In this document: positions 9,135 through 56,176 of the stretch, piece by piece
How the letters are laid out: every line of letters starts with the position of its first letter
How positions within the stretch are numbered: position 1 is the first letter of the stretch
Assembly: GCA_051715345.1 (NCBI GenBank)
Contig: JBPXJQ010000029.1
Location: 37,240 to 101,239, forward strand
Source: Candidatus Blackallbacteria bacterium
GTDB taxonomy: Bacteria; Cyanobacteriota; Sericytochromatia; UBA7694
DNA length: 64,000 nucleotides
Direction: 5' to 3'
The notes under the pieces: model-generated
Seen by the model: the letters and a program-made list of their open reading frames with translations, nothing else
Databases searched by the model: none
Told to the model about the DNA's origin: nothing
Position numbers and translations under genes: made by a program

Positions 9135-11105
9135 TTAAAGGCCTTTCAGGTTTCGGCCTTCACTGGCAGCGACAATTTCTTTCAGCGATCGGGCGCCCAG
9201 GGTATCCCCTTCATGGGGGACGGTCACACGCATGACTTCGTCAAGGCTGGTAATCCCTTGAATCACCTTGTAGACGCCATCTTCGGCCAAACTTATCATC
9301 CGTTGACCACTGCGCGCCAGCTCGCGCAACCCAGAGGCTGTCATACCCCTTCTCAGAGCTTGACGCAGGCTTTCGTTGAACTCCAACACCTCATGTAAAG
9401 CGCTAAGACCTTTATAGCCTTCATTCCCACAATCATCGCAGCCATTTGCCTGCCAAAAGAGGTAGTTGTTCCGGTCATTGGCTGAGATAAATAGGTTTTT
9501 AAGCTCATCTGGGCTGGGGGCATAGCTGCTTTTGCATTGCTCACAGAGTTTACGTACAAGCCGTTGGGACACCAACAACAATGGCACGGGTGTGGTGAGA
9601 AAGTGCTGAGCCTGTATATGCTGTAAGTGGTGTAAGGCAGCCGTTGTATCACAGGCATTGAGAGCCGCCAAAACCTTTTTTCCGTTTAAAGCTGCTTGAT
9701 CAATTCTTTCGCTGACACGTTGGTCCTTGACTTCGCCCACGACCACCACATCTGAGTCGTAATCTATCATGGCCTCAATCAGATCGCTGTAGCTGTCTTT
9801 GCCCCCAGCACCATAATAGTTTTGGATGACCCCAGTAATGCTGTAATCAACCGCGTCTTCAAGGGTTAAAATCGCATTATTTGGATGATTCAGGTGCGAT
9901 ATGGCAGCATAAAGTAAGGTGGATTTGCCCGATCGCTGGGGGGAGACCGCCAATAAAACACCCCCCGCACGGTTGAGCAGGGTTTCAATTTTTTTCTGGT
10001 TTTGGGGCGAAAAGTCCATGTCTTCAATACTTAACACCCTGTGGGGAATATAAGCGATATGTAATACCAAATTTTCGCCCCACACACCGCTAAAATATGA
10101 AATTTTTAACTCCACCTGTTGGCGGCCAATCGTGGTGATCAGCCGTTCTTGCCAATAGTCTTCCCGTTTGATTCGAAAAGGGGTTTTGATATAGTCAATT
10201 AAGGGTGGACCCAGGCGCAAAGGCAAGTCGGTCCGGTGTTTTAAAACGCCATTGACGCGGTAGCGCAAACGAATGAATTTTTCTTGACTCTCTAAATGAA
10301 GGGCCGTGGCCCCCGCTTCCACTGCGCTGCGGATCAAAAAACTGGCAATCGGTGCGGCCTGTTCTTTGGTGGGTTTGGCGTTATTGCTCAAATTAAGCAA
10401 CTTTTCGTCTAGTTCTTGGGTGCTGTCTGGGTTGTTTTTGGCTTTGCGCCGCGGCTTAAATAAATAGGTTATCGTGTTGATAATTTCGCTTGCCGGCGCA
10501 ATGGCCGGCGTAATTTTACATTTAAAGCGATCCAGTAATGCTTGCAATAACTCGCTATTCAGGGGGTCCGACATCACCACCACCATTTGGTTGCCGTAGC
10601 GGTGCACAGGCAGACATTCATGCTGCCTTAAAAATTGTTCATCCATTCCTTTGAGCAATTCGGGGTCGATCAACTCGGGTGAAGGCAAAATTCGGGGTAT
10701 ATCCAATTGCATGCTCAAAGCATGGGTCAATTGTTGTTCCGAGATAATGCCCGATTGGACCAAAAGGGTGCCAAAACGATTGCTGGAAAAACGCTGCTGT
10801 TCTAAAACATGGTTGAGTTGTTCCTGGTTGATCAAGCCCATATTGATCATCAATTCGCCGATTTGAATGCGTTTGTGGTGACGGCTGAGAAAGCGCTGTA
10901 AATCCTGTTTGGTAATTAACTTCATTTCCACGCAGATCAGCCCCAGTGGTTTGTAATGACCAGGTTGGCCCAAATCACTGATCATGCCTGACTGTTTTTG
11001 CATGGCCAGCGCTTTTTGCAGTCCGTCTACGGTTAATAGCCCTTCGCGAACCATCAGATCACCGAGTTTCATGGGTTTGTTTTTGGGCGAGGGGGTGCGT
11101 TGCAT
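9135..11105 (-). CDS. GspE/PilB-family secretion ATPase with three N-terminal MshEN-type (T2SSE_N) c-di-GMP-binding motifs
   Basis: Three tandem [RK]LGxxLxxxGxxxxxxLxxALxxQ motifs (KLGDLMVREGLLTVDGLQKALAMQ, IGELMINMGLINQEQLNHVLEQQ, RFGTLLVQSGIISEQQLTHALSMQ). Walker A reads SPQRSGKST, which deviates from the GPTGSGKST consensus. Asp box EDAVDY, Walker B VVVVGEVKD and a C-terminal tetra-Cys CEQC...CDDC are present. Confidence 0.7.
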   Translation of the reverse strand: MQRTPSPKNKPMKLGDLMVREGLLTVDGLQKALAMQKQSGMISDLGQPGHYKPLGLICVEMKLITKQDLQRFLSRHHKRIQIGELMINMGLINQEQLNHVLEQQRFSSNRFGTLLVQSGIISEQQLTHALSMQLDIPRILPSPELIDPELLKGMDEQFLRQHECLPVHRYGNQMVVVMSDPLNSELLQALLDRFKCKITPAIAPASEIINTITYLFKPRRKAKNNPDSTQELDEKLLNLSNNAKPTKEQAAPIASFLIRSAVEAGATALHLESQEKFIRLRYRVNGVLKHRTDLPLRLGPPLIDYIKTPFRIKREDYWQERLITTIGRQQVELKISYFSGVWGENLVLHIAYIPHRVLSIEDMDFSPQNQKKIETLLNRAGGVLLAVSPQRSGKSTLLYAAISHLNHPNNAILTLEDAVDYSITGVIQNYYGAGGKDSYSDLIEAMIDYDSDVVVVGEVKDQRVSERIDQAALNGKKVLAALNACDTTAALHHLQHIQAQHFLTTPVPLLLVSQRLVRKLCEQCKSSYAPSPDELKNLFISANDRNNYLFWQANGCDDCGNEGYKGLSALHEVLEFNESLRQALRRGMTASGLRELARSGQRMISLAEDGVYKVIQGITSLDEVMRVTVPHEGDTLGARSLKEIVAASEGRNLKGL

Positions 11106-11181
11106 CGCTGGATTTCCTTGAAAGAGAGATTACACATGGGTTGGTCTCCAGTGTACACAATCGCTTTCGCGCTTGGAAGGT

Positions 11182-12915
11182 TCAGATTTGGTAATTGAGA
11201 AAGAGACTGGCGACAGGTCCATTGCTTTCGAGGCCGTAGCTCAGATTGATGTTTTTGTCCCCTTCTTTCCAGGCCTTCGAAGTACTGGGATAATACCGCC
11301 AACCCGCATTGAGGCCCAAGATAAAATCCGGATTCACCTGGTAGGCCAACCCCAAAAAGGCGGTGCCGCCAATATTGCTCTGACTTAAATCCCTGACCCC
11401 TTGGCTCAATTGGCCATTGATTTGTCCCATTCTGAAACCCAGATCGAATACCCATTGGCGGAAGTGAAAACGCTTGCTCAAACCACCTTCGAGGGTCATC
11501 GCCACCAAAGAGTTTGAATTATTGCCTTGGCCCTGTGAGAGCATGCCCACGCTACCATTGAGATTGAGGTAGGTTTCCGACCAATTTAAAAAAGGGGCAA
11601 GACTGTAGAGGATTTCGACCGAACCTTCGGGTTGGAAATCTTGAGGCCCCAAACGCGGATCGAGGGTAAGAGAGCCAATGCCCCCTCTAAAGTTGACCTG
11701 AAAATCTGTCTTGGCATATTCCAAATACTGATCTCCCAGTTCAAAATTGCGCTGGGCAATGATCGGCTCTGCCAAGAGATCTTTTTCATTCAATTGGCGC
11801 AATTTGAGAAAACCAATTTCGCTGGCTTTTTTATCTGGTCCGAGGTATTCCACAATTTTATAGCCATGATCCATTTTTAGACCCAGGCTCTGGGGTGTTT
11901 CTCCGCCTGGCAGTGAAAGAGTGACCCGATCCTCTTTGAGATCGTGGGCCATGACCTGGCCTTTGACGGAAAATTCGGGGTTGTTGCGCAATTTTGCGAC
12001 CAACTCCTGCATTTTGTAGAGGGTGGTGACCCCCTCTAAAAGTTGATTCACTTTATTGCCCGAATCTGAGCCAAAGAGGGATATTTGGCCGAGGGCCAGT
12101 TCCAAGACCTGGTTGGTTAATTTTCCAACTTGGGCACCGGGTTGCAATTCCGCTTCGAGTGCTTTGGCTGCAACGCCCATCATCGCAGGGGCAGGGTCTT
12201 CTTGTTCGAGCCGGGCAAAGACCTGATCAAAAGGCGATAATTTGCGCAATTCTTCCAGAAAAACTTTGCCATCACTGGGATTTGGGGCCGATCCCAACTC
12301 GAATAACATGCGCTCGCGCAGACCCTCGAGATTGTCGATGGGCAGTAGTTTCACAATTTCCCAGCTCTGGCTGTATTGTTCTAAGACCTTGGGGCCTTCT
12401 TGTTTGAGGCTGTAGATCGGCAATTGCAATGTCATCTGCGAGCGAAAGCTGAGGTACCATTTCTCCCCTTCTTTGCTTTTCTCAGGCCCGCCGATTTGGA
12501 TCGGGCTGAATTGCCATTGGGGAGCCATTACATAAGCCGCATTGAGCAGTTTTTGGGTTTCACTCCAGGTCACCACTTTTTCGCCCAATTTGAGATCGGG
12601 GGTTTCTTGGCCCGCAGCAAGTTCTCCAGCGTGTTCTTGTTGGTAAATTCTGGCAGTGTTTAAAAAGTCTGGCAAACTCACCTCTGTGTCGAGGCCCTGC
12701 AGGACATAGTCAAAGCGAGGCAATTCGCGTTGAAAATAGCGGCTTAAAAATTCATCCAAGGGGTTTTGGGCCTGTTGGTAAAGCGAGATATATTTGCGCT
12801 GGAATTCGCTCAGGGGAGCGGATTCTGCAGGCTGGGCTTGAACAGGCAAAGTCCCCATTTGTAAGTGCACAAGGCTGATAAAAAGGATTGAGAGCGTAAA
12901 AATTGGGTTCAACAT
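11182..12915 (-). CDS. Secreted protein, possibly an outer-membrane beta-barrel, immediately upstream of the GspE-like gene
   Basis: Signal peptide MLNPIFTLSILFISLVHLQMGTLPVQAQ. The C-terminal region has alternating hydrophobic residues and ends ...ASLFLNYQI. Same strand and 76 nt upstream of the ATPase gene. Confidence 0.45.
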   Translation of the reverse strand: MLNPIFTLSILFISLVHLQMGTLPVQAQPAESAPLSEFQRKYISLYQQAQNPLDEFLSRYFQRELPRFDYVLQGLDTEVSLPDFLNTARIYQQEHAGELAAGQETPDLKLGEKVVTWSETQKLLNAAYVMAPQWQFSPIQIGGPEKSKEGEKWYLSFRSQMTLQLPIYSLKQEGPKVLEQYSQSWEIVKLLPIDNLEGLRERMLFELGSAPNPSDGKVFLEELRKLSPFDQVFARLEQEDPAPAMMGVAAKALEAELQPGAQVGKLTNQVLELALGQISLFGSDSGNKVNQLLEGVTTLYKMQELVAKLRNNPEFSVKGQVMAHDLKEDRVTLSLPGGETPQSLGLKMDHGYKIVEYLGPDKKASEIGFLKLRQLNEKDLLAEPIIAQRNFELGDQYLEYAKTDFQVNFRGGIGSLTLDPRLGPQDFQPEGSVEILYSLAPFLNWSETYLNLNGSVGMLSQGQGNNSNSLVAMTLEGGLSKRFHFRQWVFDLGFRMGQINGQLSQGVRDLSQSNIGGTAFLGLAYQVNPDFILGLNAGWRYYPSTSKAWKEGDKNINLSYGLESNGPVASLFLNYQI

Positions 12916-12954: not shown

Positions 12955-12983
12955 TTGGCCTGCATCACTGCGTCTGTTATACT
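12955..12983 (+). promoter_or_regulatory. Putative sigma70-type promoter for gene 13027: -35 TTGGCC, 17-nt spacer, -10 TATACT
   Basis: Hexamers read directly from the sequence in the divergent intergenic region 12916-13026. Confidence 0.4.
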
Positions 12984-13026: not shown

Positions 13027-15747
13027 ATGAAAACCCCCTATCATCATCTTCCCGTCATCAGGCATGCAGGTCTGTTGGAAGAGCTAAACGGGATCCCCGC
13101 TTATCTCAATCCAGCAGGATATCAGGCTTATGGGACGTCTTTTAGTTGGCCGTTTTACAGCGGCGGCATATCCGGTAATATCGACGTAGTCGAGAGTCTC
13201 AGTGCCTCCGTGGTCGAAGACCTCCCGCAGGGTTGGTATATGCTGCGCACCTATTATTTTGGCCAATTATTGGAGCGCAAAGCACTGCTCAAAGCCAATG
13301 GCAACCTTGAAGTCAGTTCTCCCGGTCCGATCGCAGCCTCCCAGACAGTCATTTTGGCTGAGCTTGAACATGAAGATCTGCGTTATACCGTGATGCTGCG
13401 CGAGACCAGTCAAGGTTGGGTCAACAAAGACGGCAGTGGCCAACAGGTATTTTTGCTCTACCGCAGCATGACCCGCAAACTCGAAAGGGTGATTCGCGAA
13501 AAGATGCCTGAAGAGGGCTTTGCCAAATTGCGGGTCTCTTTGGGTGAGCAGCCCACACTTTTTCCGATGCAACTCTCACCCAGTGTTTTGGATGTCACTG
13601 GTCGCCGTGTCCCCCTGTTTTACAGCGATGCGATTGAACGCTTGGCCGATTTGCTTTTATCTCACCGCCCGCCTTATGGCCGCACTTTGGTCTATGCAGG
13701 GGGCGATCTTGACTATTTTGATCAATTTGCACTGCACGAAGTCTTTCGTCTTTTGGGCGCTCGCAATCTCAGTGGCAGCAGTGAGTTTGGTCTGCGGGCC
13801 GCCGCCAGAACGCTGGAACTCCAGGCCGGTGAAGAATCGCCGATTTTAACTTTGGAACAGGCCCTCGAAGGCCCCAATAGATTGTTCTTGATGTCGGGCT
13901 GGAATGGCTTTGTCTCTCATTTGCCCGTCTTTAACCAATTGGTTTTGCGTGAAGATCTCGACGCCTGGTTGGTCGATGTCTGTGTGACTGAAAGTGCCAA
14001 AATTTTGGCTGCGCGACTGGCGCCTGAACGGGTTTTATTGGTCCGTACGGGTGGCGATGCCCATTTTGCATTGGCTGTGGCCCATGAAATTGTTCACAAT
14101 TATCCCGGTGCTTTGGATCAGGCGTTTATTTCACAGTACTGTGATCGTGAAAGTCTGGAACAATACTTAACCCTGGCCCGCTCGGAATTCTTCCAAATTG
14201 AACGCACTGCAGAAACCATTTCTCCCGATCCGGCTTATACTGATCGGCTGGTGGCGGGGATTCGCGCCATCGCCGCTCGTTTGGTTGAAAGTGAAAGTGT
14301 TCCCGTGCATTTGGCGGGCTCGGGTCTCTCCCAGACGTCCGGGGTCGTCGGCCACGGACTTTGGAACAATCTCCTGGCCATGTTGGGTAAATTTGGTCTG
14401 TCCTCAGAGGGCACTCCCCGTGGAGGTTCTTTGCGCCTGCCTTACCAGCACAACGAGGAGACCCAAGTACAGGGTTTGGCCCAGGATCGTTTCTTTGGCA
14501 ATCTTCCCTTTAACGAAGTGGGGGCAAGAGAGTCCGCCCTGCGTATGGGCCTGCCTGAAAATGCCTATCACCGTCTGCTCAAAGAGCCCATGCGGCCTGT
14601 CTTGGAGTATACGACGCCTACCCAAGCCGGTCAGCGCGAGCTGATTATTTGTATCGGCCAGGGCCTTGAAGGCCAAATGGTTGACAGGGGCCGTTGGAAA
14701 GACAAACTGAGTGCCCCCGAAACCACTTTGGTGGTGATCGATCCCATGCCCGGCCCTTTCTTTTTGCGCCATGCCGCCCTGTGTTTGCCCACTGCCCCCG
14801 AGGTGGCTTCGGCACGGCTGTACCAAAATGGCGAATGGCGCTTGACTCTTGCCTTTCCCCGCCGCACGGCCCCACCCGAGACACGCACGGCTACGACTTT
14901 GCTTTACGACACCATGGCTGAAGTTTCCAGGTCTTTGCGTGAAGAAGAAGATTTTCGCGAGGGCCATCCCGATTTGGCCAGCTATTCAGCCCAGGGCTAT
15001 TTACAATCGCGTTTTGAACCGCCCGAATGGAATTGGGGCGGGGGGCTTGAGCGCATCGATGGCGAAGTCAGCCGCTTTCAACTCTGGGACCGAATCCAGT
15101 CTTATCTCACTGGCACTGAAGAGACCCGGGGCCCACTCTATTGCCGTCCCGAACACAGCGATGGCATGCCGTTAAACTGGGACGAAGTTCTCTCAGCCGG
15201 AAGTTTGATTTATGGCGGGGTCGGCAAAAACCGCCACCGCCAGGGTGGGTGTGAACGCGCACCATTTCAAGACATTTACCGCGAACCCGTGTCCTTTCGC
15301 TTCTTTGTGCCCAAAGAAGGTGATTTGCGCATCCCCAATGGAATTGTACTCAATACGGGCTGTTCAACACTCAGTGACAATGTGGCCTGGATTCGTTTTG
15401 CGATTTCCTCGTTTCATTCCAGCAAGGTGCTTGATTCGCTTGATATGCCCAAACACAAGCCGTTGTTTATCTCACAAACCCTGGCCGATGAAATGGGCTT
15501 TAAAAAAGACCAAAAAGTCAAAGTCAGCAATGTTGAAACGGGCCGCTCTTTGATTCTCAAAGTTGAGCCCACATCACGGCTCAAAGGCCACATGGCCTAT
15601 TTGAGTTATCACCATTCCCATGCCGAAATTCAACAGGATTCTTATATCAATATCCTTTCCTACCGCAGTGTTCGCTGTGCCTATTCGGGACTGCCTTATC
15701 TCAAGTCCACTCTGATTACTCTCGAAGCTTTGCAAGAAGGAGACTGA
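13027..15747 (+). CDS. Molybdopterin (Mo-bisPGD) oxidoreductase-fold protein that lacks the N-terminal Fe-S cysteine motif
   Basis: Central LFLMSGWNGFVSHLP resembles the xWGSNPxxxxP motif. The C-terminal segment PLFISQTLADEMGFKKDQKVKVSNVETGRSLILKVEPTSRLKGHMAYLSYHH follows the Molydop_binding domain pattern (xISPxDAxxLGIxDGDxVxVxSxRGxxxLxAxVT...). The first ~200 aa contain no cysteines and there is no TAT signal. Confidence 0.45.
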   Translation: MKTPYHHLPVIRHAGLLEELNGIPAYLNPAGYQAYGTSFSWPFYSGGISGNIDVVESLSASVVEDLPQGWYMLRTYYFGQLLERKALLKANGNLEVSSPGPIAASQTVILAELEHEDLRYTVMLRETSQGWVNKDGSGQQVFLLYRSMTRKLERVIREKMPEEGFAKLRVSLGEQPTLFPMQLSPSVLDVTGRRVPLFYSDAIERLADLLLSHRPPYGRTLVYAGGDLDYFDQFALHEVFRLLGARNLSGSSEFGLRAAARTLELQAGEESPILTLEQALEGPNRLFLMSGWNGFVSHLPVFNQLVLREDLDAWLVDVCVTESAKILAARLAPERVLLVRTGGDAHFALAVAHEIVHNYPGALDQAFISQYCDRESLEQYLTLARSEFFQIERTAETISPDPAYTDRLVAGIRAIAARLVESESVPVHLAGSGLSQTSGVVGHGLWNNLLAMLGKFGLSSEGTPRGGSLRLPYQHNEETQVQGLAQDRFFGNLPFNEVGARESALRMGLPENAYHRLLKEPMRPVLEYTTPTQAGQRELIICIGQGLEGQMVDRGRWKDKLSAPETTLVVIDPMPGPFFLRHAALCLPTAPEVASARLYQNGEWRLTLAFPRRTAPPETRTATTLLYDTMAEVSRSLREEEDFREGHPDLASYSAQGYLQSRFEPPEWNWGGGLERIDGEVSRFQLWDRIQSYLTGTEETRGPLYCRPEHSDGMPLNWDEVLSAGSLIYGGVGKNRHRQGGCERAPFQDIYREPVSFRFFVPKEGDLRIPNGIVLNTGCSTLSDNVAWIRFAISSFHSSKVLDSLDMPKHKPLFISQTLADEMGFKKDQKVKVSNVETGRSLILKVEPTSRLKGHMAYLSYHHSHAEIQQDSYINILSYRSVRCAYSGLPYLKSTLITLEALQEGD

Positions 15748-15749
15748 TA

Positions 15750-16982
15750 GTGTCGATCTCAGAAGTTCTCAAAAGCGTCCCCTTTTTTGATCATTTTACC
15801 GATACCCAAATTGATGACCTGGTGCATATGGGGCGTCCGCTCCAGACCGAAGCCGATCAAGTGCTCTTTCAGATGGGTGATCTGGCCGACAGCCTCTACG
15901 TCATTCTCAACGGCTCTGTGCGGGTCTATGGCAAAGATCCTGAGGGCAAGCCGGTTGAACTCTCCACCCTGCGCAAGGGGCAGTTTTTTGGGGAGTTGGC
16001 CCTGGTGGATGGTGGCACCCGTTCCGCCACCGTGCGCACAGGCGAACCCTGTGAATTTTTTGTGATTGAGCGCTCCAATTTTATGCGCTTGCTCTCCACC
16101 TCCCCCGAATTGCTCTCGGACGTCTTGGCGGGCATTACCAGCAAAATCAAAAGTTCAAATGAAAAAATCTTTCTCGAAATGTTGGAAAAACAGCGCTTGC
16201 AGTCGCAGATGGAAATTGATCGCCACCGCTCACTCTCTGAGATGGTGGCTGGGGTGGCCCATGAGATCAATACCCCGCTGGGCATTGTCAATGTTACAGC
16301 CAGCATGATCACGGAGAACCTGACCCCCGATCTCTTGGCCCGTGCCACCGATCCCGAACTCAAATATGTGCTCGAAGACATTCAAGAAGCAGCTCAATTA
16401 ATGCTGAGCAACATTGCCCGTGCCAATAAATTGATCCAGAGCTTCAAAAGTGTTTCAGTCAATCAGATTATGGATACCTTGGAAACGGGCCTGTTTGTGC
16501 AATTGGTTCAAGAGGTGATAGACCTGTTTAAAATCAAGGCCCGTCAGGCACACTTGAGCCTGGAAACTGAGTTTGAACCTGGCGTTGAGCATTTGGAATG
16601 GACGGGTTATCCGGGGTATCTGTCTCAAATTCTGATGAATTTTTTCAGCAATATCGAAAGATATGCCTATCCCGCTGGGGTCGGTGGCCGGATTTTGGTC
16701 AAACTCAGCAGTTTTGAACGCGACAATAAGCCTTTTTTCAGGCTTGTGGTGCAAGACTTTGGCAAAGGGATTCCCAAAGAAGATGTTTCCCGTGTCTTTG
16801 ACGTCTTTTTTACCACGGGGCGCGGTCAAGGGGGGACAGGCTTGGGTATGTCGATTGTGCACAATTTGGTTACGTCTGCCCTGCACGGCAGTATTACCCT
16901 CGATTCTGAATTGGGCCAAGGCACCACTGTGACGGTTGAATTTCCCCATCAAATTACCCCGCAGGAACATTTGGCCGGATAA
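15750..16982 (+). CDS. Cyclic-nucleotide-binding sensor histidine kinase (cNMP domain, HisKA, HATPase_c)
   Basis: N-terminal CAP-type cNMP domain (FFGELALVDGGTRSATVRT), H-box VAHEINTPLG and G-box GTGLGMSIV. The GTG start sits directly after the upstream stop (TGATAGTG). Confidence 0.7.
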   Translation: MSISEVLKSVPFFDHFTDTQIDDLVHMGRPLQTEADQVLFQMGDLADSLYVILNGSVRVYGKDPEGKPVELSTLRKGQFFGELALVDGGTRSATVRTGEPCEFFVIERSNFMRLLSTSPELLSDVLAGITSKIKSSNEKIFLEMLEKQRLQSQMEIDRHRSLSEMVAGVAHEINTPLGIVNVTASMITENLTPDLLARATDPELKYVLEDIQEAAQLMLSNIARANKLIQSFKSVSVNQIMDTLETGLFVQLVQEVIDLFKIKARQAHLSLETEFEPGVEHLEWTGYPGYLSQILMNFFSNIERYAYPAGVGGRILVKLSSFERDNKPFFRLVVQDFGKGIPKEDVSRVFDVFFTTGRGQGGTGLGMSIVHNLVTSALHGSITLDSELGQGTTVTVEFPHQITPQEHLAG

Positions 16983-17017
16983 GCGCCATTTGAATCCATA
17001 AGAGCAAGGAGCATCCC

Positions 17018-17944
17018 ATGATTTCATTACCTGAAAATTATTTGATTCTGGTGGTTGACGACGAGCCGGATATGCACTCGCTCAGCCGCCTGAGCTTACG
17101 CAGTTTAAAATACCGCGATCGGGGGGTGGAATTGGCCTTTGCCTCAACAGGTCAGGAAGCGGTTGAATTTATGCGCAGCCGCCCCGATACCGCCGTGATT
17201 CTGCTCGATGTGGTGATGGAAACCCCGACTGCTGGCCTTGATGCCTGTCAGTCGATTCGCCAAGAACTCGGCAACGAATTTGTGCGGATTATTCTGCGCA
17301 CGGGCCAACCAGGGGCCGCCCCCGAAAAGAAAGTGATCGAAGAATATGATATCGACGGCTATTTGGCCAAAGCCGAATTGACAACCAACCGGCTCTATAC
17401 CGCTGTGCGCACGGCCCTGAAAGCCTATGATGAATTGGTTGAATTGCAGCGCCACCGCGAGGTCTTGACCTTTTTGCATGAATCGGTCACCTCTTTGCAT
17501 ACCCTCGAAGCGTTGGAAGAGAGCCTGCAGCGCATTCTCGAAACGGCGGTGATGATTGCCCCCTGTGACTTGGCTGTCTTGAATCTCGAAACTTTTCAAG
17601 AATCTGGAGACTCACGGCGCTATGTCTTGTTTACAGGCACCAATCCCAATTCAGACGAAACCGAAGCTGCCGCCACGGCGATAGTCTCTCAGATTGCCGA
17701 AGACCCCAGCGCGCTGGCGCTCAAAGATGCGGGAATTTTTGGCAATGGTTTCCTCGTGCCTTTGGTCCTGCACAGGGATTTGGGCTATGGCTGGCTCTAT
17801 GTCGAAAACAGCCTCGAAGATCCGCTGATGTACCAAACCCTGCCCATGTTGGCGGCCCATGCTGCCAACGCCCTCTATTCCACGATTGCCCGCGAATTGT
17901 TTTTGGCCCGCAGCGGCACCTTCTTTGCTGAGATCAACGTCTAG
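17018..17944 (+). CDS. Response regulator: receiver domain plus a ~180-aa C-terminal domain of unknown function, GAF-like
   Basis: Receiver signature LVVDDEPDMH...ILLDVVM. RBS AAGGAG at 17004-17009 before ATG 17018. Confidence 0.65.
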   Translation: MISLPENYLILVVDDEPDMHSLSRLSLRSLKYRDRGVELAFASTGQEAVEFMRSRPDTAVILLDVVMETPTAGLDACQSIRQELGNEFVRIILRTGQPGAAPEKKVIEEYDIDGYLAKAELTTNRLYTAVRTALKAYDELVELQRHREVLTFLHESVTSLHTLEALEESLQRILETAVMIAPCDLAVLNLETFQESGDSRRYVLFTGTNPNSDETEAAATAIVSQIAEDPSALALKDAGIFGNGFLVPLVLHRDLGYGWLYVENSLEDPLMYQTLPMLAAHAANALYSTIARELFLARSGTFFAEINV

Positions 17945-19818
17945 CCAGTGCGCTCCAAGGGAATTCGGCTTCCCTGCAGCAAAGCTTGAAAAAATTCGCG
18001 CAGATTGTAGTGCAAAAAGAGTTCTGTCGGGGATTTATGCCCCATCGGGGGTGGGCCTGCGATCAGCTGTTTATAAAACAATTCTTCAAAAATCGAATGG
18101 CTCAGGCCAATTGCTTCGTTAAGTAATTCCAGCGGGAAATCCGCCTGAACCTCTTCGAGATAGGTTCTGAGCAGACTGTGGGCTTCGCGGTAAAAAACGA
18201 CTATTTTGTTTTCTTGGCTCAGCCGCAATTGCAGGGCGATATCTGGCGCGAGATGAGCCCCATCTTTGATTGAATAGAGCAGTGGGTTTTCGTCTTGGCG
18301 GACATACCCGTCTTGCAATTTGTGGGCTGTGATAATCAATGCCTTTTGCAAGGCATCTAAAAGCGGCAACTCTTTGAGGTGCTCAGGAGACATAAAACGC
18401 TCAATTAAACTGCGGTAAGACAGGCCTGTCTGCTGGTGAATTAAAAGCAGGGGCAACTGTAACATTTTGTGGGTATAGACCAAAAAATTGGTGGTCCAGG
18501 CGTAGGCGTGCATTTTGACCCAATCCGCGCGCGAAAGCGTTTTGGTTGCGACAATAATTTCGAGGTATTCATAGATGCCATCGGGCGGCTCTCCGTGGCC
18601 TGGAAAGTGAATTTGGATGCTCTCGAGGCCATAGCGTTCTCGGTAGGCAGGTTGGGCCATCTCAGCATTGGGTAAGATGCTGGCGTTATAACAGATGATT
18701 TTGTTGAATTGCCCGTGGTTCAGCACATCATCGATGGTATTGGCAAAGGAGTCGTAGGTCTCTTCGGGCAGGCCCAGAATAATATCTGTATAGCTAAAAA
18801 TGCCATTGTCGAGGCAGAATTGTTGAATTTCGCGGTAGGCCTGCAGGGAGATGTTTTGCCGGTTGATTGCTTTGAGCACCTCTGGGTGGGTGCTTTGAAC
18901 CGCCAAAGAAGTGACGGAGTTGAGACCTGCATCGGCCAGGATTTTTTGGATTTCAAAATTGCGCTGTTTGACGTTTTTGGCGGTTTGGGTTTGCACGCAT
19001 TGGGGATAACCCGTTTTTTGGCTGACCAAAGCAAAATGCCGTGCCAGTTCAACATCTCTTTCAAAAATACCAAAATTGGCATCTGCGGAAAAAATATTGC
19101 CGACGCGGTTGGCGCCAAACCATTCAATTTCGGCTTTGAGCCGCTCCAAATCATAGCGATAAACCTTGCTCTGGGTTAAAGACCCCCAATCACAAAAACT
19201 GCACGAAAACGGACAGCCCCGATTGCTTTCCCAGGTGCCGACCCATTCTCTGTTGGGCCATTTTTCGAGCAGCGAATCAAAAATGCCACTCAAATAAGGG
19301 GAGGGTATGCTGTCGAGATCCTTGATGCGGGGCCCCGCTGGGTGGGTCTGAAATTTTCCCTGAGGATCGATATAACTGATTCCGGGTATGCTGTGCCAAT
19401 CGTTTTCGGGAAAGGCTTCCAACAGAGCCAGAAAGGTATTTTCCCCTTCACCGTGCGCGCAGACATCGATATAGGGATGGGCCCGCAAAAAAACCTCAGC
19501 CTCGTTGGGGACCTGGGGCCCCCCAAAGAGAATCAAAATCTGAGGATGGCTTAATTTGAGGGATTGTGCCAGTGCCAAGGAGCGTTTGATATTCCAGATA
19601 TAGGTGCTAAATCCAGCAATATCAACCTCTTTGAGGGCCTCTACTCCCTCTGGAATCGAGACCCTGTGGTGCACAGGCGGCAAAAATTGATAGCGTTCTG
19701 GCGCACTCGCCCAGCGTTGGGCATAGGCCTGTAAAAGTCCCACCGAATAGGGAAAATAATAGTGCTCACCGCGCTGTTCGCTGATCTGTACCAGACCGAC
19801 CCGGACGTGATCCTTCAT
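17941..19818 (-). CDS. B12-binding-domain radical SAM enzyme (class B rSAM with DUF4070-like C-terminus)
   Basis: Radical SAM cluster motif CPFSCSFCDW (CxxxCxxC), preceded by a B12-binding-like N-terminal domain. 625 aa. Confidence 0.65.
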   Translation of the reverse strand: MKDHVRVGLVQISEQRGEHYYFPYSVGLLQAYAQRWASAPERYQFLPPVHHRVSIPEGVEALKEVDIAGFSTYIWNIKRSLALAQSLKLSHPQILILFGGPQVPNEAEVFLRAHPYIDVCAHGEGENTFLALLEAFPENDWHSIPGISYIDPQGKFQTHPAGPRIKDLDSIPSPYLSGIFDSLLEKWPNREWVGTWESNRGCPFSCSFCDWGSLTQSKVYRYDLERLKAEIEWFGANRVGNIFSADANFGIFERDVELARHFALVSQKTGYPQCVQTQTAKNVKQRNFEIQKILADAGLNSVTSLAVQSTHPEVLKAINRQNISLQAYREIQQFCLDNGIFSYTDIILGLPEETYDSFANTIDDVLNHGQFNKIICYNASILPNAEMAQPAYRERYGLESIQIHFPGHGEPPDGIYEYLEIIVATKTLSRADWVKMHAYAWTTNFLVYTHKMLQLPLLLIHQQTGLSYRSLIERFMSPEHLKELPLLDALQKALIITAHKLQDGYVRQDENPLLYSIKDGAHLAPDIALQLRLSQENKIVVFYREAHSLLRTYLEEVQADFPLELLNEAIGLSHSIFEELFYKQLIAGPPPMGHKSPTELFLHYNLREFFQALLQGSRIPLERTG

Positions 19819-23076: not shown

Positions 23077-23706
23077 TTACCCAAGCCAAATTATTTTTCC
23101 CCGGCCCAATTCGACCCGCTTTTCTTGTTCTAATTTTTTCAGCAGACGCGAAACCACTTCTCGGGCCGTGCCCAATTCATCTGCCAATTGCTGGTGAGTG
23201 GCTTGAATCAAAGAGCCGCCAGCCAGTTTGGCCCGGGTTTGCAGCAAATCCAACAGGCGTTCATCCACCCGACTGAAGGCCAATTCGTTGACCACCTGTA
23301 CCAATTCTTCAAAGCGAATGGTGTACAGCTCCAGCACAAATTGGTTCCAACTGGCATGGTTTTGGGCCCACAATTTTAAACAATGACTGGGAAAGACCCA
23401 AACCTCTGTGTCCGCCTGGGCAATGGCCCGAATTTGGCTGCGTTGGGCCTTGGTGCCTGCCAAAATGGAGAGCACACAAGATTCCCCTGGCTGGATATAA
23501 TAGAGCAAAATTTCTTTGCCAGAGGGGTCGTCACGCAAAACCCGGATACTGCCTTTGAGGACCAAAGGAATCAGACTGACTTCGCTGCCCGGTCCCAAAA
23601 TTTCCTGTTCCTGTGCAAAGCTCAGGGTGCGCCCTTCGCTGATTAAGGCCAAGATTAATTCTGGGCTAAAGGCACTGAATCGTGCTTTGAGTAGGTCTCG
23701 GTTCAT
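23077..23706 (-). CDS. Crp/Fnr-family transcriptional regulator
   Basis: N-terminal cNMP-binding beta-roll and C-terminal HTH (REVVSRLLKKLEQEKRVELGRGKI). Confidence 0.7.
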   Translation of the reverse strand: MNRDLLKARFSAFSPELILALISEGRTLSFAQEQEILGPGSEVSLIPLVLKGSIRVLRDDPSGKEILLYYIQPGESCVLSILAGTKAQRSQIRAIAQADTEVWVFPSHCLKLWAQNHASWNQFVLELYTIRFEELVQVVNELAFSRVDERLLDLLQTRAKLAGGSLIQATHQQLADELGTAREVVSRLLKKLEQEKRVELGRGKIIWLG

Positions 23707-52021: not shown

Positions 52022-54933
52022 GTGAACATTTCCGCTCTTTTGTAGACGCCCTCTCTCAGGTTGTTTTGCGTCAGCCGGAGGCCCCGGCTTTTGTCAGTGC
52101 AGAAAGCGCTTTGAGTTATGTCCAGCTCTGGGAAGAATCTGGACGGGTAGCTGCTTTTTTGGGCTCAACAGGGCTGCAACCTGGCGAGCGGGTGGGCATT
52201 TGTTTGCCCAGATCTGTGGCCTGGATTATTGCCTTGATTGGCGCATGGCGAGCAGGCATGGTGATCACGCCACTCGATCCCTTGGCTCCTGCTGAGCGTT
52301 TGGAGTGGCAACTCAAACACGCCACCCTGGCCACGGTCTTGGGGCAAGGTTCACCACCGGCGGGAATTCCACTTTCAAGCTGGCTCGATTTGGCCCTGGC
52401 ATGTGATGCTGAACCACTGAAAGATAGCCATTTGTTGCAAGAGGGCGACCCAGCCTATTTGATCTTTACCTCGGGTTCAACGGGCCTTCCCAAAGGGGTT
52501 TTACTGCCCCACCGGGGCCTCTTGCCGGTTTTAGAGGCCCAAATAGCGGCCTTTGGTTTGGGGCCAGGCTGTCGCAGTCTCTGGCTGCTTTCGCCGCTCT
52601 TTGATGCTTCGCTTTCCGATTTGGGGACCACCCTCTTGGCAGGTGCCACCCTTTATATGGACACTGGCCTGGAAAGAGATCTTGACCGCTTTAAACAAGC
52701 CCTCGCAAAATGGCAGATCACCCATCTCGATTTACCACCTTCGTTATTGCCTCTGCTCAATCCCTCCGATTTTCCCAGCTCTTTTCAGACCTTGATTCTC
52801 GGGGGGGAACCCAGTGACCCCGCCCGTCTGCGCATCTGGGCTGAAAATTTCAAGCTAATCAATGTCTATGGCCCCACCGAAACAACCATCTGTGCCTCCC
52901 TGTGTGTGGTTGATCAGAACTGGCAAGTGCCTTTGTTGGGGCAGCCTTTGCCAGGCTTTGGCTTTGCTGTTTTACAGCCCGATCAAACCCCTGTGGATCA
53001 AGGCCAAGATGGAGAATTGTGGATCAGTGGTCCCGGTTTGGCATTGGGATACGTCAATGCTTCACGCTTGACCCGCGAACGCTTCCGTGAGTTAAATGGG
53101 GTGCGTTTTTACCGCAGTGGCGATCGGGTTCAGCTTTTGCCAGGGGGGGAATTTGCTTTTCGGGGCCGACTCGATCGCCAACTCAAATGGCATGGCCAGC
53201 GCCTGGAGCCCGAAGAAATTGAAGCTGTGCTTCTGCAAGTGCCGGGTTTGACCCGTGTAGCCGTGTTTTTACACATCCAAGCCGGACAAGATGACGGCGT
53301 TTTAAGTGTTGCCTTTCAAACCCAAATGCCTGAATGTGTTGAGCAGGGCTTTTTGCAGACAACTTTAAAAGCCTGCTTGCCAGAATGGATGTTGCCTGTG
53401 CGCTGGTTTCAACCCGTCGAATGGCCACTCACAGCGACGGGCAAAACAGATTATGAAGCCTTGCAACACTTAGCGTTTGAAACGGATCTCACTTCTGAGC
53501 CCATAGAATCTCCCGAAGAGGCCCTGTTTCTCAGCCTTTGGCGTGAAATTTTGCATCGCCCGGCTCTCAGTGCCAGCGAAGCTTTGGGTGCACATTCATT
53601 GCAAAAATTGGAGTTTTTGGCCCGCTGCAGTTTACAAGGTTTGCATCTCAATCCCGAACGCCTGAGTACCTGTGATTCGGTCCGACAGATTGTACAGATT
53701 CAACACCAAACAGAAGTCAGTGGTTTGCCCGTTGAACATTTATTGCCCGACACCCAGCTCAGCCCTTCCTGGCGACGTTTTTTAGCCCAATCTCAGACCC
53801 ATGCCGTTAAAGGCAAAGGGGAGCCTCTATTAACTGGTGCCACTGGATTTCTGGGCCGCTGGCTTTTGCGCAGCTTGCTCGAAGAGGGCAAAGGCCCCGT
53901 TCACTGCTTGGTGCGGGCCCGCAATGTCGAAGAAGGTTTGGAACGGCTTTTACAGGCCCTAAAGAGCACTGGGCCTTGCAAAAATGACTGGGCGAAACGG
54001 ATTGTTCCCTGGTGTGGTGACCTTGAAGCTGAACAGTGGGGATTGCCAAATAGTTCTTGGAAACGTCTGGCATTGGCATTGGATCGGATCATTCACAGTG
54101 GGGCTCGCGTGCACCTCAGCGAGCCTTATGAGCGCCTCAAGGACCCCAATCTTAAAGGCACTCAGACGGCGCTTAAATTACAGGCTTCAGGCCGCAGCAA
54201 AGCCTTACATTATGTTTCGACCCTCTCGGTTTTTGTTGGCAGTGATCGCAATCAAGGTGTGGCTTATGAAGACGACGATCTCTCTCAGACCCGATATCTG
54301 TTTGGGGGTTATGCCCAAAGTAAGTGGGCGGCAGAGGCTTGGCTGCGCCAAAGTGGGGGCCAAGCGGGACCGCTGCAGATCTACCGCTTGGGCTTGATTA
54401 CTGGCGACACGCAGATTGGCTGGTTTCCTGAAAAAGATTGGTTTCAATGGTTGACACAGGGATTGGTCAATTTGGGTGGCATACCCCAAGACATCGACCC
54501 TGCCTGGGCCCTGGATTTAACTCCTGTGGACTATGCTGCTCGGGCCCTGTTGGCGCTTGCCAAAAAGCCTTTGCCGGGTCTTCATACCTATCATCTTGCC
54601 AATCCCAAACCACTCCTACTGGGGCAGTGGCTCACAGCTTTACAGGCCTTTGGCGTGCGTTTAGAGCGCCTGCCCCGTGCTGAGTGGCATTTGCGTATGC
54701 AGGCAGCCTTGCAAAGCTGTACAGGCCCTGAAAGTGCATCTGCACTCTTGGCCCTTTGTCGCCTGATGGGTGAAGAACAATACAAACATTTGCGCAGTCT
54801 TGATCTTTTTCAAACCACGGGCATTCGCTTTGATACCCAAAACGCGGATACTCTCTTACACCCGCAGGGACATTTTTGCCCAGCACCTGAACCTGAATTA
54901 CTTCAGCGCTACCTCATTCAGATGCTGAATTAG
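52018..54933 (+). CDS. NRPS-like carboxylic-acid reductase: adenylation, peptidyl-carrier and terminal thioester-reductase domains (A-T-R)
   Basis: A-domain motifs LIFTSGSTGLPKGV (A3), FDAS (A4, Asp present), NVYGPTETT (A5), YRSGDRV (A7), GRLDRQLKWHGQRLEPEEIE (A8), ATGKTD (A10). Carrier LGAHSL. R-domain TGATGFLGRWLL and YAQSK. RBS GGAGG before ATG 52018. Confidence 0.75.
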   Translation: MSEHFRSFVDALSQVVLRQPEAPAFVSAESALSYVQLWEESGRVAAFLGSTGLQPGERVGICLPRSVAWIIALIGAWRAGMVITPLDPLAPAERLEWQLKHATLATVLGQGSPPAGIPLSSWLDLALACDAEPLKDSHLLQEGDPAYLIFTSGSTGLPKGVLLPHRGLLPVLEAQIAAFGLGPGCRSLWLLSPLFDASLSDLGTTLLAGATLYMDTGLERDLDRFKQALAKWQITHLDLPPSLLPLLNPSDFPSSFQTLILGGEPSDPARLRIWAENFKLINVYGPTETTICASLCVVDQNWQVPLLGQPLPGFGFAVLQPDQTPVDQGQDGELWISGPGLALGYVNASRLTRERFRELNGVRFYRSGDRVQLLPGGEFAFRGRLDRQLKWHGQRLEPEEIEAVLLQVPGLTRVAVFLHIQAGQDDGVLSVAFQTQMPECVEQGFLQTTLKACLPEWMLPVRWFQPVEWPLTATGKTDYEALQHLAFETDLTSEPIESPEEALFLSLWREILHRPALSASEALGAHSLQKLEFLARCSLQGLHLNPERLSTCDSVRQIVQIQHQTEVSGLPVEHLLPDTQLSPSWRRFLAQSQTHAVKGKGEPLLTGATGFLGRWLLRSLLEEGKGPVHCLVRARNVEEGLERLLQALKSTGPCKNDWAKRIVPWCGDLEAEQWGLPNSSWKRLALALDRIIHSGARVHLSEPYERLKDPNLKGTQTALKLQASGRSKALHYVSTLSVFVGSDRNQGVAYEDDDLSQTRYLFGGYAQSKWAAEAWLRQSGGQAGPLQIYRLGLITGDTQIGWFPEKDWFQWLTQGLVNLGGIPQDIDPAWALDLTPVDYAARALLALAKKPLPGLHTYHLANPKPLLLGQWLTALQAFGVRLERLPRAEWHLRMQAALQSCTGPESASALLALCRLMGEEQYKHLRSLDLFQTTGIRFDTQNADTLLHPQGHFCPAPEPELLQRYLIQMLN

Positions 54934-56150: not shown

Positions 56151-56176
56151 AGGATTTCCTGTATTTCAATACCCAT

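Follow-up and report, generated by a model that had tools for sequence, protein, structure and literature searches.

A Mo/W-bisPGD-fold protein lacking cofactor ligands, probably a regulatory pseudo-enzyme, encoded in a two-component operon of Candidatus Sericytochromatia

The window analysed here is a 64-kb stretch (64,000 nucleotides) of a Candidatus Sericytochromatia chromosome, and positions 13027–17944 of its forward strand form a single operon. Three open reading frames were found, at 13027–15747, 15750–16982 and 17018–17944, all on the plus strand. The genes and the features discussed below are as follows, residue numbers referring to the product of the first gene unless stated otherwise.

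12955–12983, plus strand: promoter-like site TTGGCC-17-TATACT, with TG before the -10 element, 44 nt 5′ of the first ATG; a candidate only
13027–15747, plus strand: Mo/W-bisPGD-fold protein without cofactor ligands ('class C', putative pseudo-enzyme), 906 aa, ATG start
13147–13170, plus strand: former first FS0 motif, residues 41–48, WPFYSGGI (canonical C-x-F-C-G-V-G-D), from alignment
13174–13500, plus strand: beta-rich insertion, residues ~50–158, between the former FS0 halves; family-specific and of variable length
13507–13527, plus strand: former fourth FS0 ligand and electron-transfer Lys, residues 161–167, PEEGFAK (canonical P-T-x-G-C-V-K)
13762–13818, plus strand: former Mo-ligand loop, residues 246–264, RNLSGSSEFGLRAAARTLE (canonical RNLTGNAEHCLNAGAVHNE), from the NapA alignment
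15439–15711, plus strand: Molydop_binding-like C-terminal beta-barrel domain, residues 805–895
15737–15742, plus strand: AAGGAG ribosome-binding site within the end of gene 1, 7 nt 5′ of the kinase GTG; translational coupling
15750–16982, plus strand: soluble histidine kinase, 410 aa, GTG start; Pfam domains and boxes present
17018–17944, plus strand: response regulator, 308 aa, ATG start; receiver and GAF-like/DUF3369-like domain

As the initial annotation had read it, the stop codon of the Mo-fold gene (TGA, 15745–15747) is followed 2 nt later by the GTG of the kinase gene at 15750, and at orthologous loci the spacing of these two genes lies between -11 (overlap) and +3 nt. An AAGGAG also precedes the ATG of the regulator gene. 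The promoter proposed upstream is indeed present, but a scan of the region found four promoter-type sites where 3.8 were expected by chance, so that the site alone is no evidence. A second paralogue, a NarK-type gene, a cyclase and a cofactor-biosynthesis gene were sought in the 64-kb window without success, and no electron donor for the 906-aa protein is encoded nearby.

For the 906-aa protein, Pfam returned PF01568 below threshold at residues 805–895 (E = 0.0028, score 18.1 bits, cut-off 26.8 bits) and no match to PF00384, and NCBIfam gave a weak, sub-threshold bisC_fam match. Since these single-protein hints all fall below threshold, the fold assignment required a family profile and a structure model. 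Compared with PDB sequences, the profile matched Fdh alpha (E = 2.6e-7) and NapA (E = 1.8e-6). The AlphaFold model (pLDDT 88.5, pTM 0.85) has the fold of the superfamily, with four domains, two of them Rossmann-like and dinucleotide-binding, and a C-terminal beta-barrel; in a Foldseek search it matched NapA with an E-value of 9.6e-32. Profile and predicted structure thus support a Mo/W-bisPGD fold of the Nap/Nas/Fdh branch and not another fold family. The signatures reported at first are therefore real but weaker than was implied, and this weakness extends to relatives, PF00384 being missed in all 28 family members scanned and PF01568 detected in 21 of them.

The family is small and sharply separated, scoring at least 600 bits within itself and no more than about 55 bits against canonical enzymes, and no description of it or of its gene module was found in the full-text literature searched. 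Its canonical members (class A) occur in many phyla and carry a split FS0 motif, C-x2-C-x3-D ... C-x-K, together with a Cys at the Mo-ligand position of NapA; around half are fused to an FAD/NAD(P)H plus 2Fe-2S reductase. Class A genes are often accompanied by a NarK-type nitrate/nitrite transporter, a gene specific to this class, which in more than 20 loci is either joined to the partner kinase in one protein or encoded beside it. The only PDB matches of the MFS part of the fused kinase are NarU and NarK, and both nitrate-binding Arg residues and GxGNxG are kept. Class A proteins have the appearance of self-sufficient reductases driven by NAD(P)H and acting on nitrate, nitrite or a similar oxyanion, the substrate being inferred. 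They resemble NasA, NasC and NarB in being cytoplasmic, Cys-ligated members of the Nap/Nas/Fdh branch with NarK-type transporters at their loci, but the family differs from those enzymes in its split FS0 with an Asp, in a reductase fusion of the FNR type rather than the NasB/NirB type, and in its linkage, for the most part, to a two-component system. Further pointers to nitrate or nitrite in class A are an HPP-family membrane protein encoded in locus L089 and an H-NOX kinase that adjoins the module in Paraliomyxa.

Class B is an FS0-only intermediate, near which only a small stand-alone cNMP-binding protein, and no regulator, is encoded. The clade of the window protein, class C, is confined to Sericytochromatia and came out as monophyletic in all 50 outgroup-rooted bootstrap trees. 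In this clade the ligands of FS0 and of Mo have disappeared, together with the reductase module and the transporter; the fold remains, as do the kinase and the regulator. The loss of FS0 and ligand is derived, because FS0 and the Cys ligand are both present in the outgroup. A midpoint-rooted tree proved misleading, its root being attracted by the long class C branches, and was replaced by the outgroup rooting. The next-nearest tier of sequences scores best against Fdh-alpha, NasC, NasA and NapA models, and some of its members have a NifU-like C-terminal domain, which also occurs in some NasA proteins.

The FS0 [4Fe-4S] motif, C-x2-C-x3-C...C-x-K, belongs to the Nap/Nas/Fdh-type branch and is not universal in the superfamily. 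Its absence from the 906-aa protein, which had been proposed from some 200 N-terminal residues without cysteine, was verified: the cysteine-free stretch is even longer, the first Cys being residue 319, and W41, Y44, I48 and F165 occupy the positions of C, C, D and C in canonical members. In the alignment, Gly255 falls at the Cys position of canonical members (Cys140 of NapA), and with Gly255 there the protein lacks a Cys, Sec, Ser or Asp as protein ligand to Mo/W. The model is of low confidence (pLDDT <50) at residues 45–48 and 161–165. The electron-entry Lys is not conserved in class C. The reported lack of a Tat signal also holds, inasmuch as inspection by eye, without a predictor, revealed no twin-arginine motif and no hydrophobic core in the N-terminus, whether taken as MKTPYHHLPVIRHAG or as MKTPYHHLPVIRHAGLLEEL. 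In comparison with NapA of D. desulfuricans (PDB 2NAP/2JIM) and the NAD-dependent/FdhF-type formate dehydrogenases, to which it is ~15–17% identical, the window protein is cytoplasmic, has neither the FS0 cysteines, the ligand Cys nor a Tat signal, carries an extra beta-rich insertion near its N-terminus and escapes recognition by PF00384.

These losses extend beyond the ligands themselves. At least 90% conservation is seen at 268 positions in class A, of which 131 are kept in class C and 126 have turned variable; the losses are concentrated in the FS0 and Mo-loop stretches and in other segments, several being homologous with motifs conserved in NapA. That the cofactor has gone as well is inferred, and only indirectly, from these variable positions. 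Several motifs shared with NapA are still conserved (GWNG...H, an RPGxD-like motif, SQ..G, N476 and D572), for which reason it cannot be ruled out that the protein binds a (di)nucleotide or even the cofactor. The gene is nevertheless not dead: its dN/dS values against orthologues are 0.037–0.19, compared with 0.03–0.18 for the kinase and 0.012–0.05 for the regulator, and purifying selection on it is strong (dN/dS ~0.04). The initial annotation had allowed for a pseudo-enzyme, and the replacement of the four FS0 positions and the Cys, the loss of about half of the invariant positions and a dN/dS of 0.04 strongly support that alternative.

The kinase is as first described, a histidine kinase with a CAP-type sensor domain. 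Pfam detects cNMP_binding (PF00027, residues 33–117, E = 2.5e-23, above cut-off), HisKA (PF00512, residues 162–220, including His171, E = 6.6e-8) and HATPase_c (PF02518, residues 290–401, E = 3.4e-22), and the boxes of a HisKA-type sensor kinase are present (H171, N301, DxGxG at 336, the F box at 350 and GxGxG at 362). The phosphate-binding cassette for cyclic nucleotides, FGE[LM]AL..G..RSA[TS], recurs in almost every partner kinase and reads FGELAL...RSAT here (G81, E82, R91, S92, A93). By sequence the domain qualifies as CAP/CRP-type; nucleotide binding is inferred, in the absence of binding data.

The receiver protein with a further C-terminal domain that had been reported downstream consists of a receiver (residues 10–130, PF00072, E = 9e-11), a long helix (123–158) and a GAF-like/DUF3369-like domain (166–297). 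D14, D15, D64, T95 and K118, the residues expected of a receiver, are invariant in 31 sequences. DUF3369 (PF11849) itself is sub-threshold (E = 0.0031), and among relatives it is weakly matched in 15 of 31 and GAF_2 in 2 of 31. The model (pLDDT 85.4) has the REC-GAF protein 6oap as its top full-length fold match (E = 3e-14), and no DNA-binding or enzymatic output domain was found by Pfam, in the model or by fold search. RpfG-type proteins (receiver, DUF3369, HD-GYP) and the 6OAP REC-GAF dual-sensor kinase share the receiver, the long helix and the GAF-like/DUF3369-like domain, but the window regulator has no trailing HD-GYP or kinase domain and no conserved bilin Cys, and its DUF3369 match is below the cut-off. 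It is the best conserved of the three proteins. Judged from their sequences, the kinase, receiver and cNMP-binding motifs are all intact.

The linkage of these genes is conserved well beyond the window. The same trio is present in all 10 class C loci with adequate flanks, the flanks being otherwise unrelated. A regulator and/or a kinase accompanies the Mo-fold gene in 22–24 of 38 class A loci; the 14 loci with neither nearby all belong to one sub-branch. Gene order in class A varies (Mop-HK, HK-Mop-RR, RR-HK-Mop and Mop-RR-HK), and synteny persists despite this rearrangement, across several phyla and down to 34–44% identity. When loci were instead picked through the regulator, the Mo-fold gene adjoined it in three of three. 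The cross-phyla survey and this reciprocal test uphold the association with signalling genes that was initially proposed. The regulator is of one receiver plus GAF-like kind in most of class A and all of class C; the partner kinase is usually CAP-type, with inputs that vary between CAP-type, NarK plus CAP-type, GAF, HAMP and none. All-against-all clustering of flank ORFs revealed no further neighbour conserved across the family, and no cyclase is encoded near the module. P0197 resembled a natural fusion of kinase and Mo-fold protein and would have served as Rosetta-stone evidence, but it has out-of-frame stretches at both junctions and was set aside as an artefact of frameshifting in an L009-like locus.

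On balance we consider it probable, without being assured, that the 906-aa protein is a pseudo-enzyme derived from the Mo/W-bisPGD oxidoreductases and retained in a cNMP-gated phosphorelay, where it acts as a regulatory subunit. Co-produced with the kinase by translational coupling, it would act within a complex of kinase and regulator. A cyclic nucleotide would gate the kinase through the CAP-type domain, leading to autophosphorylation on His171, from which phosphate would pass to Asp64 of the regulator, whose GAF-like domain may work by binding a protein or a ligand rather than DNA. This scheme builds on the observed fold, loss of ligand residues, purifying selection and conserved linkage; the physical interaction, the direction of information flow (input or output) and the identity of any ligand are inferred, with no experiment or complex prediction behind them. 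NreA-NreB-NreC and the H-NOX plus kinase systems offer a likeness, as background only, in pairing a soluble kinase with a separate ligand-binding partner around a nitrate/NO theme. Here, however, a 906-residue protein of enzymatic descent takes the place of a GAF or H-NOX domain partner, a CAP-type cNMP domain provides the input to the kinase, and the regulator lacks a DNA-binding domain. The C-terminal domain of the complex I subunit NuoG/Nqo3, also among the closest known cases, is part of a respiratory complex, whereas the window protein is free-standing and lies in a signalling operon.

It is possible, if less probable, that the Mo-fold protein is the output of the system, bound and switched by the phosphorylated receiver plus GAF-like regulator. 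In class A this may amount to post-translational control of the reductase, and in class C to control of a leftover non-redox activity or binding function. The regulator, the most conserved of the trio, has no DNA-binding or enzymatic domain of its own, and it co-occurs with the Mo-fold protein while the kinase sensors vary (CAP-type, NarK plus CAP-type, GAF, HAMP and a nearby H-NOX kinase); with these two partners constant and the kinase inputs variable, an output role fits at least as well as an input role. Against this, no catalysis is left to control in the clade of the window protein, and tight translational coupling joins the Mo-fold gene to the kinase gene. Furthermore, class B pairs with a stand-alone cNMP-binding protein in the absence of a regulator, which suggests that the CAP-type domain and the Mo-fold protein are connected.

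That the 906-aa protein remains a working molybdo- or tungsto-enzyme without FS0 or a side-chain ligand, merely controlled by the kinase and regulator, seems unlikely. There are precedents in the superfamily, since DMSO reductase, TorA and BisC lack FS0 and arsenite oxidase has no side-chain ligand, and the strong purifying selection, the weak bisC_fam match and the retained NapA-shared motifs would all suit such an enzyme. Yet the 126 variable positions are concentrated in the Mo-ligand loop and the NapA-like segments, the Lys for electron entry is not kept, neither the fused reductase nor the transporter remains, and there is no nearby gene for an electron donor. That the genes are chance neighbours, or the first a decaying and functionless relic, has only the absence of experimental data in its favour and is very hard to reconcile with synteny that survives deep divergence, unrelated flanks and rearranged orders in several phyla, with the successful regulator-side test, and with an intact ORF that has a dN/dS of 0.037 and a confident model.

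A pseudo-enzyme retained as a regulatory subunit, if that reading is true, would extend to signalling a superfamily otherwise known for catalysis, with a relic in complex I. More speculatively, and we regard this as doubtful, the whole family may be dedicated to signalling instead of metabolism, as a module in which a self-sufficient, NAD(P)H-driven Mo reductase handles an N-oxyanion signal and is physically coupled to a cNMP-gated kinase and a receiver plus GAF-like regulator. The Sericytochromatia version would then be a cofactor-less receptor or adaptor subunit and the first pseudo-enzyme of the Mo-bisPGD fold to have a role in signalling. Nitrate or nitrite would be imported or sensed by the NarK-type 'transceptor' fused to the kinase, the product possibly being nitrite or NO; if true, bacteria would have a counterpart of N-oxide/NO-cNMP signalling. 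The family, which escapes PF00384, has two unusual features, an Asp ligand in a split FS0 and an electron chain that unites FAD, 2Fe-2S, FS0 and Mo. The series from class A (active) through class B (FS0-only) to class C (ligand-less) is natural material for the study of enzyme-to-regulator evolution. The analysis points to a cNMP-gated two-component pathway, so far unexplored and perhaps connected with nitrate or nitrite, in Sericytochromatia, Planctomycetota, Myxococcota, giant sulfur bacteria and others, and a cultured carrier, Paraliomyxa miuraensis SMH-27-4, makes the module testable.

The three genes lie on the forward strand exactly where the initial annotation had placed them:

13027–15747, forward strand: Mo-fold gene, an ORF of 906 aa
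15750–16982, forward strand: kinase gene, an ORF of 410 aa with a GTG start
17018–17944, forward strand: regulator gene, an ORF of 308 aa

The 2-nt spacing described between the first two is likewise correct, with the TGA of the Mo-fold gene at 15745–15747 and the kinase GTG at 15750. An AAGGAG ribosome-binding site for the kinase sits within the 3′ end of the Mo-fold gene, and the regulator gene is preceded by its own AAGGAG. The Mo-fold protein is taken to be made from one transcript with the kinase and the regulator, and to be translationally coupled to the kinase, a reading made without experiments. The promoter proposed upstream (TTGGCC-17-TATACT) is present at 12955–12983 but does not rise above chance, with 4 matches in the region against 3.8 expected. 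The proteins encoded by the window DNA share 99% identity with those of a Candidatus Sericytochromatia MAG (L010); the Sericytochromatia are relatives of the cyanobacteria without photosynthesis.

The Mo-bisPGD signatures originally ascribed to the 906-aa protein hold for the fold, but not for the Pfam families: a scan of the single sequence gave no match to PF00384, and PF01568 appeared only below threshold (E 0.0028). Matches to bisC_fam and to NapA (E 0.007) were weak, and it is a family profile together with the predicted structure that places the protein in the Mo/W-bisPGD fold, far from known families. An exhaustive search of 1.84 billion cluster representatives with a family HMM returned 134 matches in total. 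Family members scored at least 600 bits, the next tier (unclassified Fdh/Nas/Nap-like enzymes) 120–180 bits and canonical enzymes no more than about 55 bits, and PF00384 went undetected in all 28 family members scanned. From these score gaps and PF00384 misses we infer a small, sharply bounded family within the Nap/Nas/Fdh branch. Its members carry database names that are generic or simply ‘hypothetical protein’, and our full-text literature searches turned up no account of the family, its fusion architectures or the module. No Tat signal could be discerned by eye on the window protein. Since it meets the fold criterion for superfamily membership and fails those of the Mo ligand, the iron-sulfur motif FS0 and the Pfam thresholds, we class it as a degenerate and divergent representative rather than as a nitrate reductase or formate dehydrogenase.

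The canonical relatives, class A, come from Planctomycetota, Alpha- and Gammaproteobacteria (including Thiomargarita), Myxococcota (including the cultured Paraliomyxa miuraensis), Acidobacteriota, Rhodothermales and Gemmatimonadota. Alignment and key-column read-outs give the motif order C-x2-C-x3-D, insertion, G-C-V-K, which we interpret as an FS0-type motif interrupted by an insertion of roughly 45–110 aa, with Asp at the third position; Asp as the third FS0 residue is unusual. The Cys of ...NAEHCLNAG... aligns with Cys140, the Mo ligand of NapA. In about half of class A the protein extends at its C-terminus into a module of FAD_binding_6, NAD_binding_1 and plant-type 2Fe-2S domains, resembling the GbcB, Hcr and PaaE reductases. 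All-in-one enzymes uniting split FS0, Cys-ligated Mo domain and reductase module occur at L009:8001–11912, L090:10865–14722, L017, L033 and other loci, and this clade escapes PF00384.

Class C, which includes the window protein, is confined to the Sericytochromatia and has none of the ligand residues; the window protein has W41, Y44, I48, F165 and G255 at the FS0 and Mo-ligand positions. Its first cysteine is residue 319, which bears out the claim of a cysteine-free N-terminus (first ~200 aa) without an FS0 motif, and in its structural model pLDDT falls below 50 only at the two former FS0 loops. Of the 268 class A positions with a conservation of 90% or more, class C keeps 131; 11 have switched to another conserved residue and 126 are variable. 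The losses cluster in the FS0 segments and the Mo-ligand loop (251–275), with further segments at 430–447, 470–485, 545–554, 589–604, 729–802 and 861–889, and several of these segments match conserved NapA motifs. In neighbour-joining trees with p-distance-type corrections, for which the next tier of sequences served as outgroup, class C was monophyletic in 50 of 50 bootstrap replicates. Because the Cys ligand is present in that outgroup along with the FS0 cysteines, the trees indicate that the ligand losses of class C are derived. The gene itself is not decaying and is selectively maintained: dN/dS against orthologues is 0.037 at 93–97% identity and at most 0.19 at 54% identity, similar to that of the kinase gene. 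The pseudo-enzyme option raised in the initial annotation fits both the substituted ligand positions and this ratio.

Class B, a set of paralogues also found in the Sericytochromatia, keeps the FS0 cysteines and has Gly at the Mo-ligand position. In four of four loci a small cNMP-binding protein (about 160 aa), encoded on its own, lies immediately upstream in place of kinase and regulator, for example:

L054:5431–5970: cNMP-binding protein, preceding the class B gene
L054:5974–8682: class B gene

The same arrangement is seen in L035, L063, L064 and L069, and some genomes (JACYMC01, CAYFGW01, CAJYHH01) hold class B and class C together, whereas the Sericytochromatia MAGs JBIKWL01, JADMKE01 and JBFWRL01 have class C alone.

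The sensor attributed to the window kinase was recovered by Pfam as a CAP-type cNMP-binding domain (PF00027, E 2.5e-23), together with HisKA and HATPase_c; the kinase boxes are all present (H171, N, G1, F, G2) and membrane segments are absent. The kinase's phosphate-binding cassette is canonical (FGELAL...RSAT; G81, E82, R91, S92) and is shared by nearly every partner kinase in the family, being degenerate only in Polyangiaceae and Sorangium, and the cNMP pocket is apparently competent, although binding is inferred from motifs alone. Among the three proteins the regulator is conserved best. Its receiver is intact, with D14, D15, D64, T95 and K118 invariant in 31 sequences, and leads into a long helix and then a GAF-like domain (model pLDDT 85.4 for the regulator). 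Its best full-length structure match is the REC-GAF module of PDB entry 6oap (E 3e-14); 15 of 31 regulator family members match DUF3369 weakly, and no DNA-binding or enzymatic output domain was found in the regulator. Kinase and regulator both look functional, as judged from these predicted features.

The initial annotation would have been refuted had homologues never been linked to signalling genes; they are so linked. In class C the order Mo-fold gene (Mop), kinase (HK), regulator (RR) is kept down to 34–44% identity with flanking genes that are all different, and the trio is intact in 10 of 10 loci flanked on each side by 2.5 kb or more. Neighbours were counted in adequately flanked loci only; the genomes are mostly MAGs, and absences on short contigs are uninformative. 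Class A shows the orders Mop-HK, HK-Mop-RR, RR-HK-Mop and Mop-RR-HK with the same type of regulator, which is present in 22 of 38 loci, a kinase being present in 24 of these 38; the other 14 make up a single sub-branch without regulator or kinase. Conversely, three regulators picked solely by similarity to that of the window all adjoin a class A gene. The stop-to-start distance between Mo-fold and kinase genes is −11 to +3 nt, whichever comes first, and all-against-all clustering of flanking ORFs revealed no other family-wide conserved neighbour. The linkage is thus a property of the family and not a peculiarity of the window genome. A 911-aa metagenome protein (P0197), considered as a kinase and Mo-fold fusion, was rejected as a frameshift artefact with out-of-frame stretches at the kinase/Mo-fold junction and the C-terminus, and calls for caution when domain fusions are inferred from metagenome gene calls.

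Other genes in the window are as follows:

9135–12915, reverse strand: T2SSE-type ATPase with MshEN domain (656 aa) and a 577-aa protein
17941–19818, reverse strand: B12-binding radical SAM gene (625 aa), converging on the regulator gene with a 4-nt overlap of 3′ ends
23077–23706, reverse strand: 209-aa ORF weakly resembling the cNMP-binding domain of the kinase (E 1.5e-5), probably a CRP/FNR-type protein
54930–58954, reverse strand: second signalling pair, a hybrid kinase (GAF, HisKA, HATPase_c and receiver, 925 aa), then a receiver and GGDEF diguanylate cyclase

The radical SAM arrangement is shared with the closest relatives (L001–L003) and not with more distant class C loci. The 577-aa protein, encoded upstream of the ATPase gene and divergent from the operon, has no Pfam match; neither it nor the ATPase is conserved beside the module elsewhere.

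Class A loci offer a clue to substrate:

L009:5230–8004: NarK-type MFS, cNMP-binding and kinase core fusion
L017:1187–3997: the same fusion
L033:3097–5976: the same fusion
L090:8070–10853: the same fusion
L089:11822–12487: HPP-family (PF04982) membrane protein directly after the class A gene (one locus)
L048:2505–4709, reverse strand: H-NOX (haem-NO-binding) and PAS histidine kinase, divergent from the RR, Mo-fold and kinase module of Paraliomyxa miuraensis SMH-27-4

In at least 13 loci of class A the kinase is part of a fusion protein of 920–985 aa with an MFS domain at its N-terminus. At least 6 further loci encode this MFS protein on its own next door, and more distant copies adjoin the kinase-less sub-branch. 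NCBIfam assigns this domain to the NarK family (E 4.5e-52), NarU and NarK are its only relatives in the PDB, and alignment with them shows that the two arginines that bind nitrate have been kept, as has the GxGNxG signature; the fusion could possibly be a transporter-receptor (‘transceptor’). HPP proteins include nitrite transporters. At L089 the class A gene is split into ORFs of 548 and 736 aa and the kinase input is GAF rather than a cNMP domain. Similar H-NOX-PAS kinase neighbours occur in L044 and L050, also Nannocystineae myxobacteria, where the module's own kinase lacks a cNMP domain. Considered alongside the Cys ligand and the NAD(P)H reductase fusion, the NarK-type MFS, HPP and H-NOX neighbours suggest that class A is a cytoplasmic nitrate/nitrite-type reductase, an inference without residue-level substrate assignment. 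The NarK-type MFS, HPP protein, H-NOX kinase and fused reductase are all absent from class B and C loci and from the window.

We are confident that the window's Mo-fold protein descends from a redox enzyme without being one itself, and that its function is linked to the two-component system. That it may contribute to the input, as partner of the CAP-type domain or the kinase, is suggested by the coupling of its gene to the kinase gene and by the pairing of class B with a CAP-only protein. Both observations count against an output role, with the Mo-fold protein as target of the phosphorelay; this tentative alternative is in turn supported by a regulator and Mo-fold pair that is constant while kinase inputs vary (CAP-type, NarK plus CAP-type, GAF, HAMP). 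That a protein devoid of the ligand residues is still an enzyme we regard as very improbable. The explanation we favour, with some reserve, is that it would act as a non-catalytic regulatory subunit of a cNMP-gated kinase/regulator phosphorelay. By analogy, such a module may resemble accessory-protein-dependent two-component systems (NreA-NreB, or H-NOX with its kinase) and enzyme-derived pseudo-enzymes, and the regulatory role would go back to an ancestor that had already coupled enzyme turnover to the relay.
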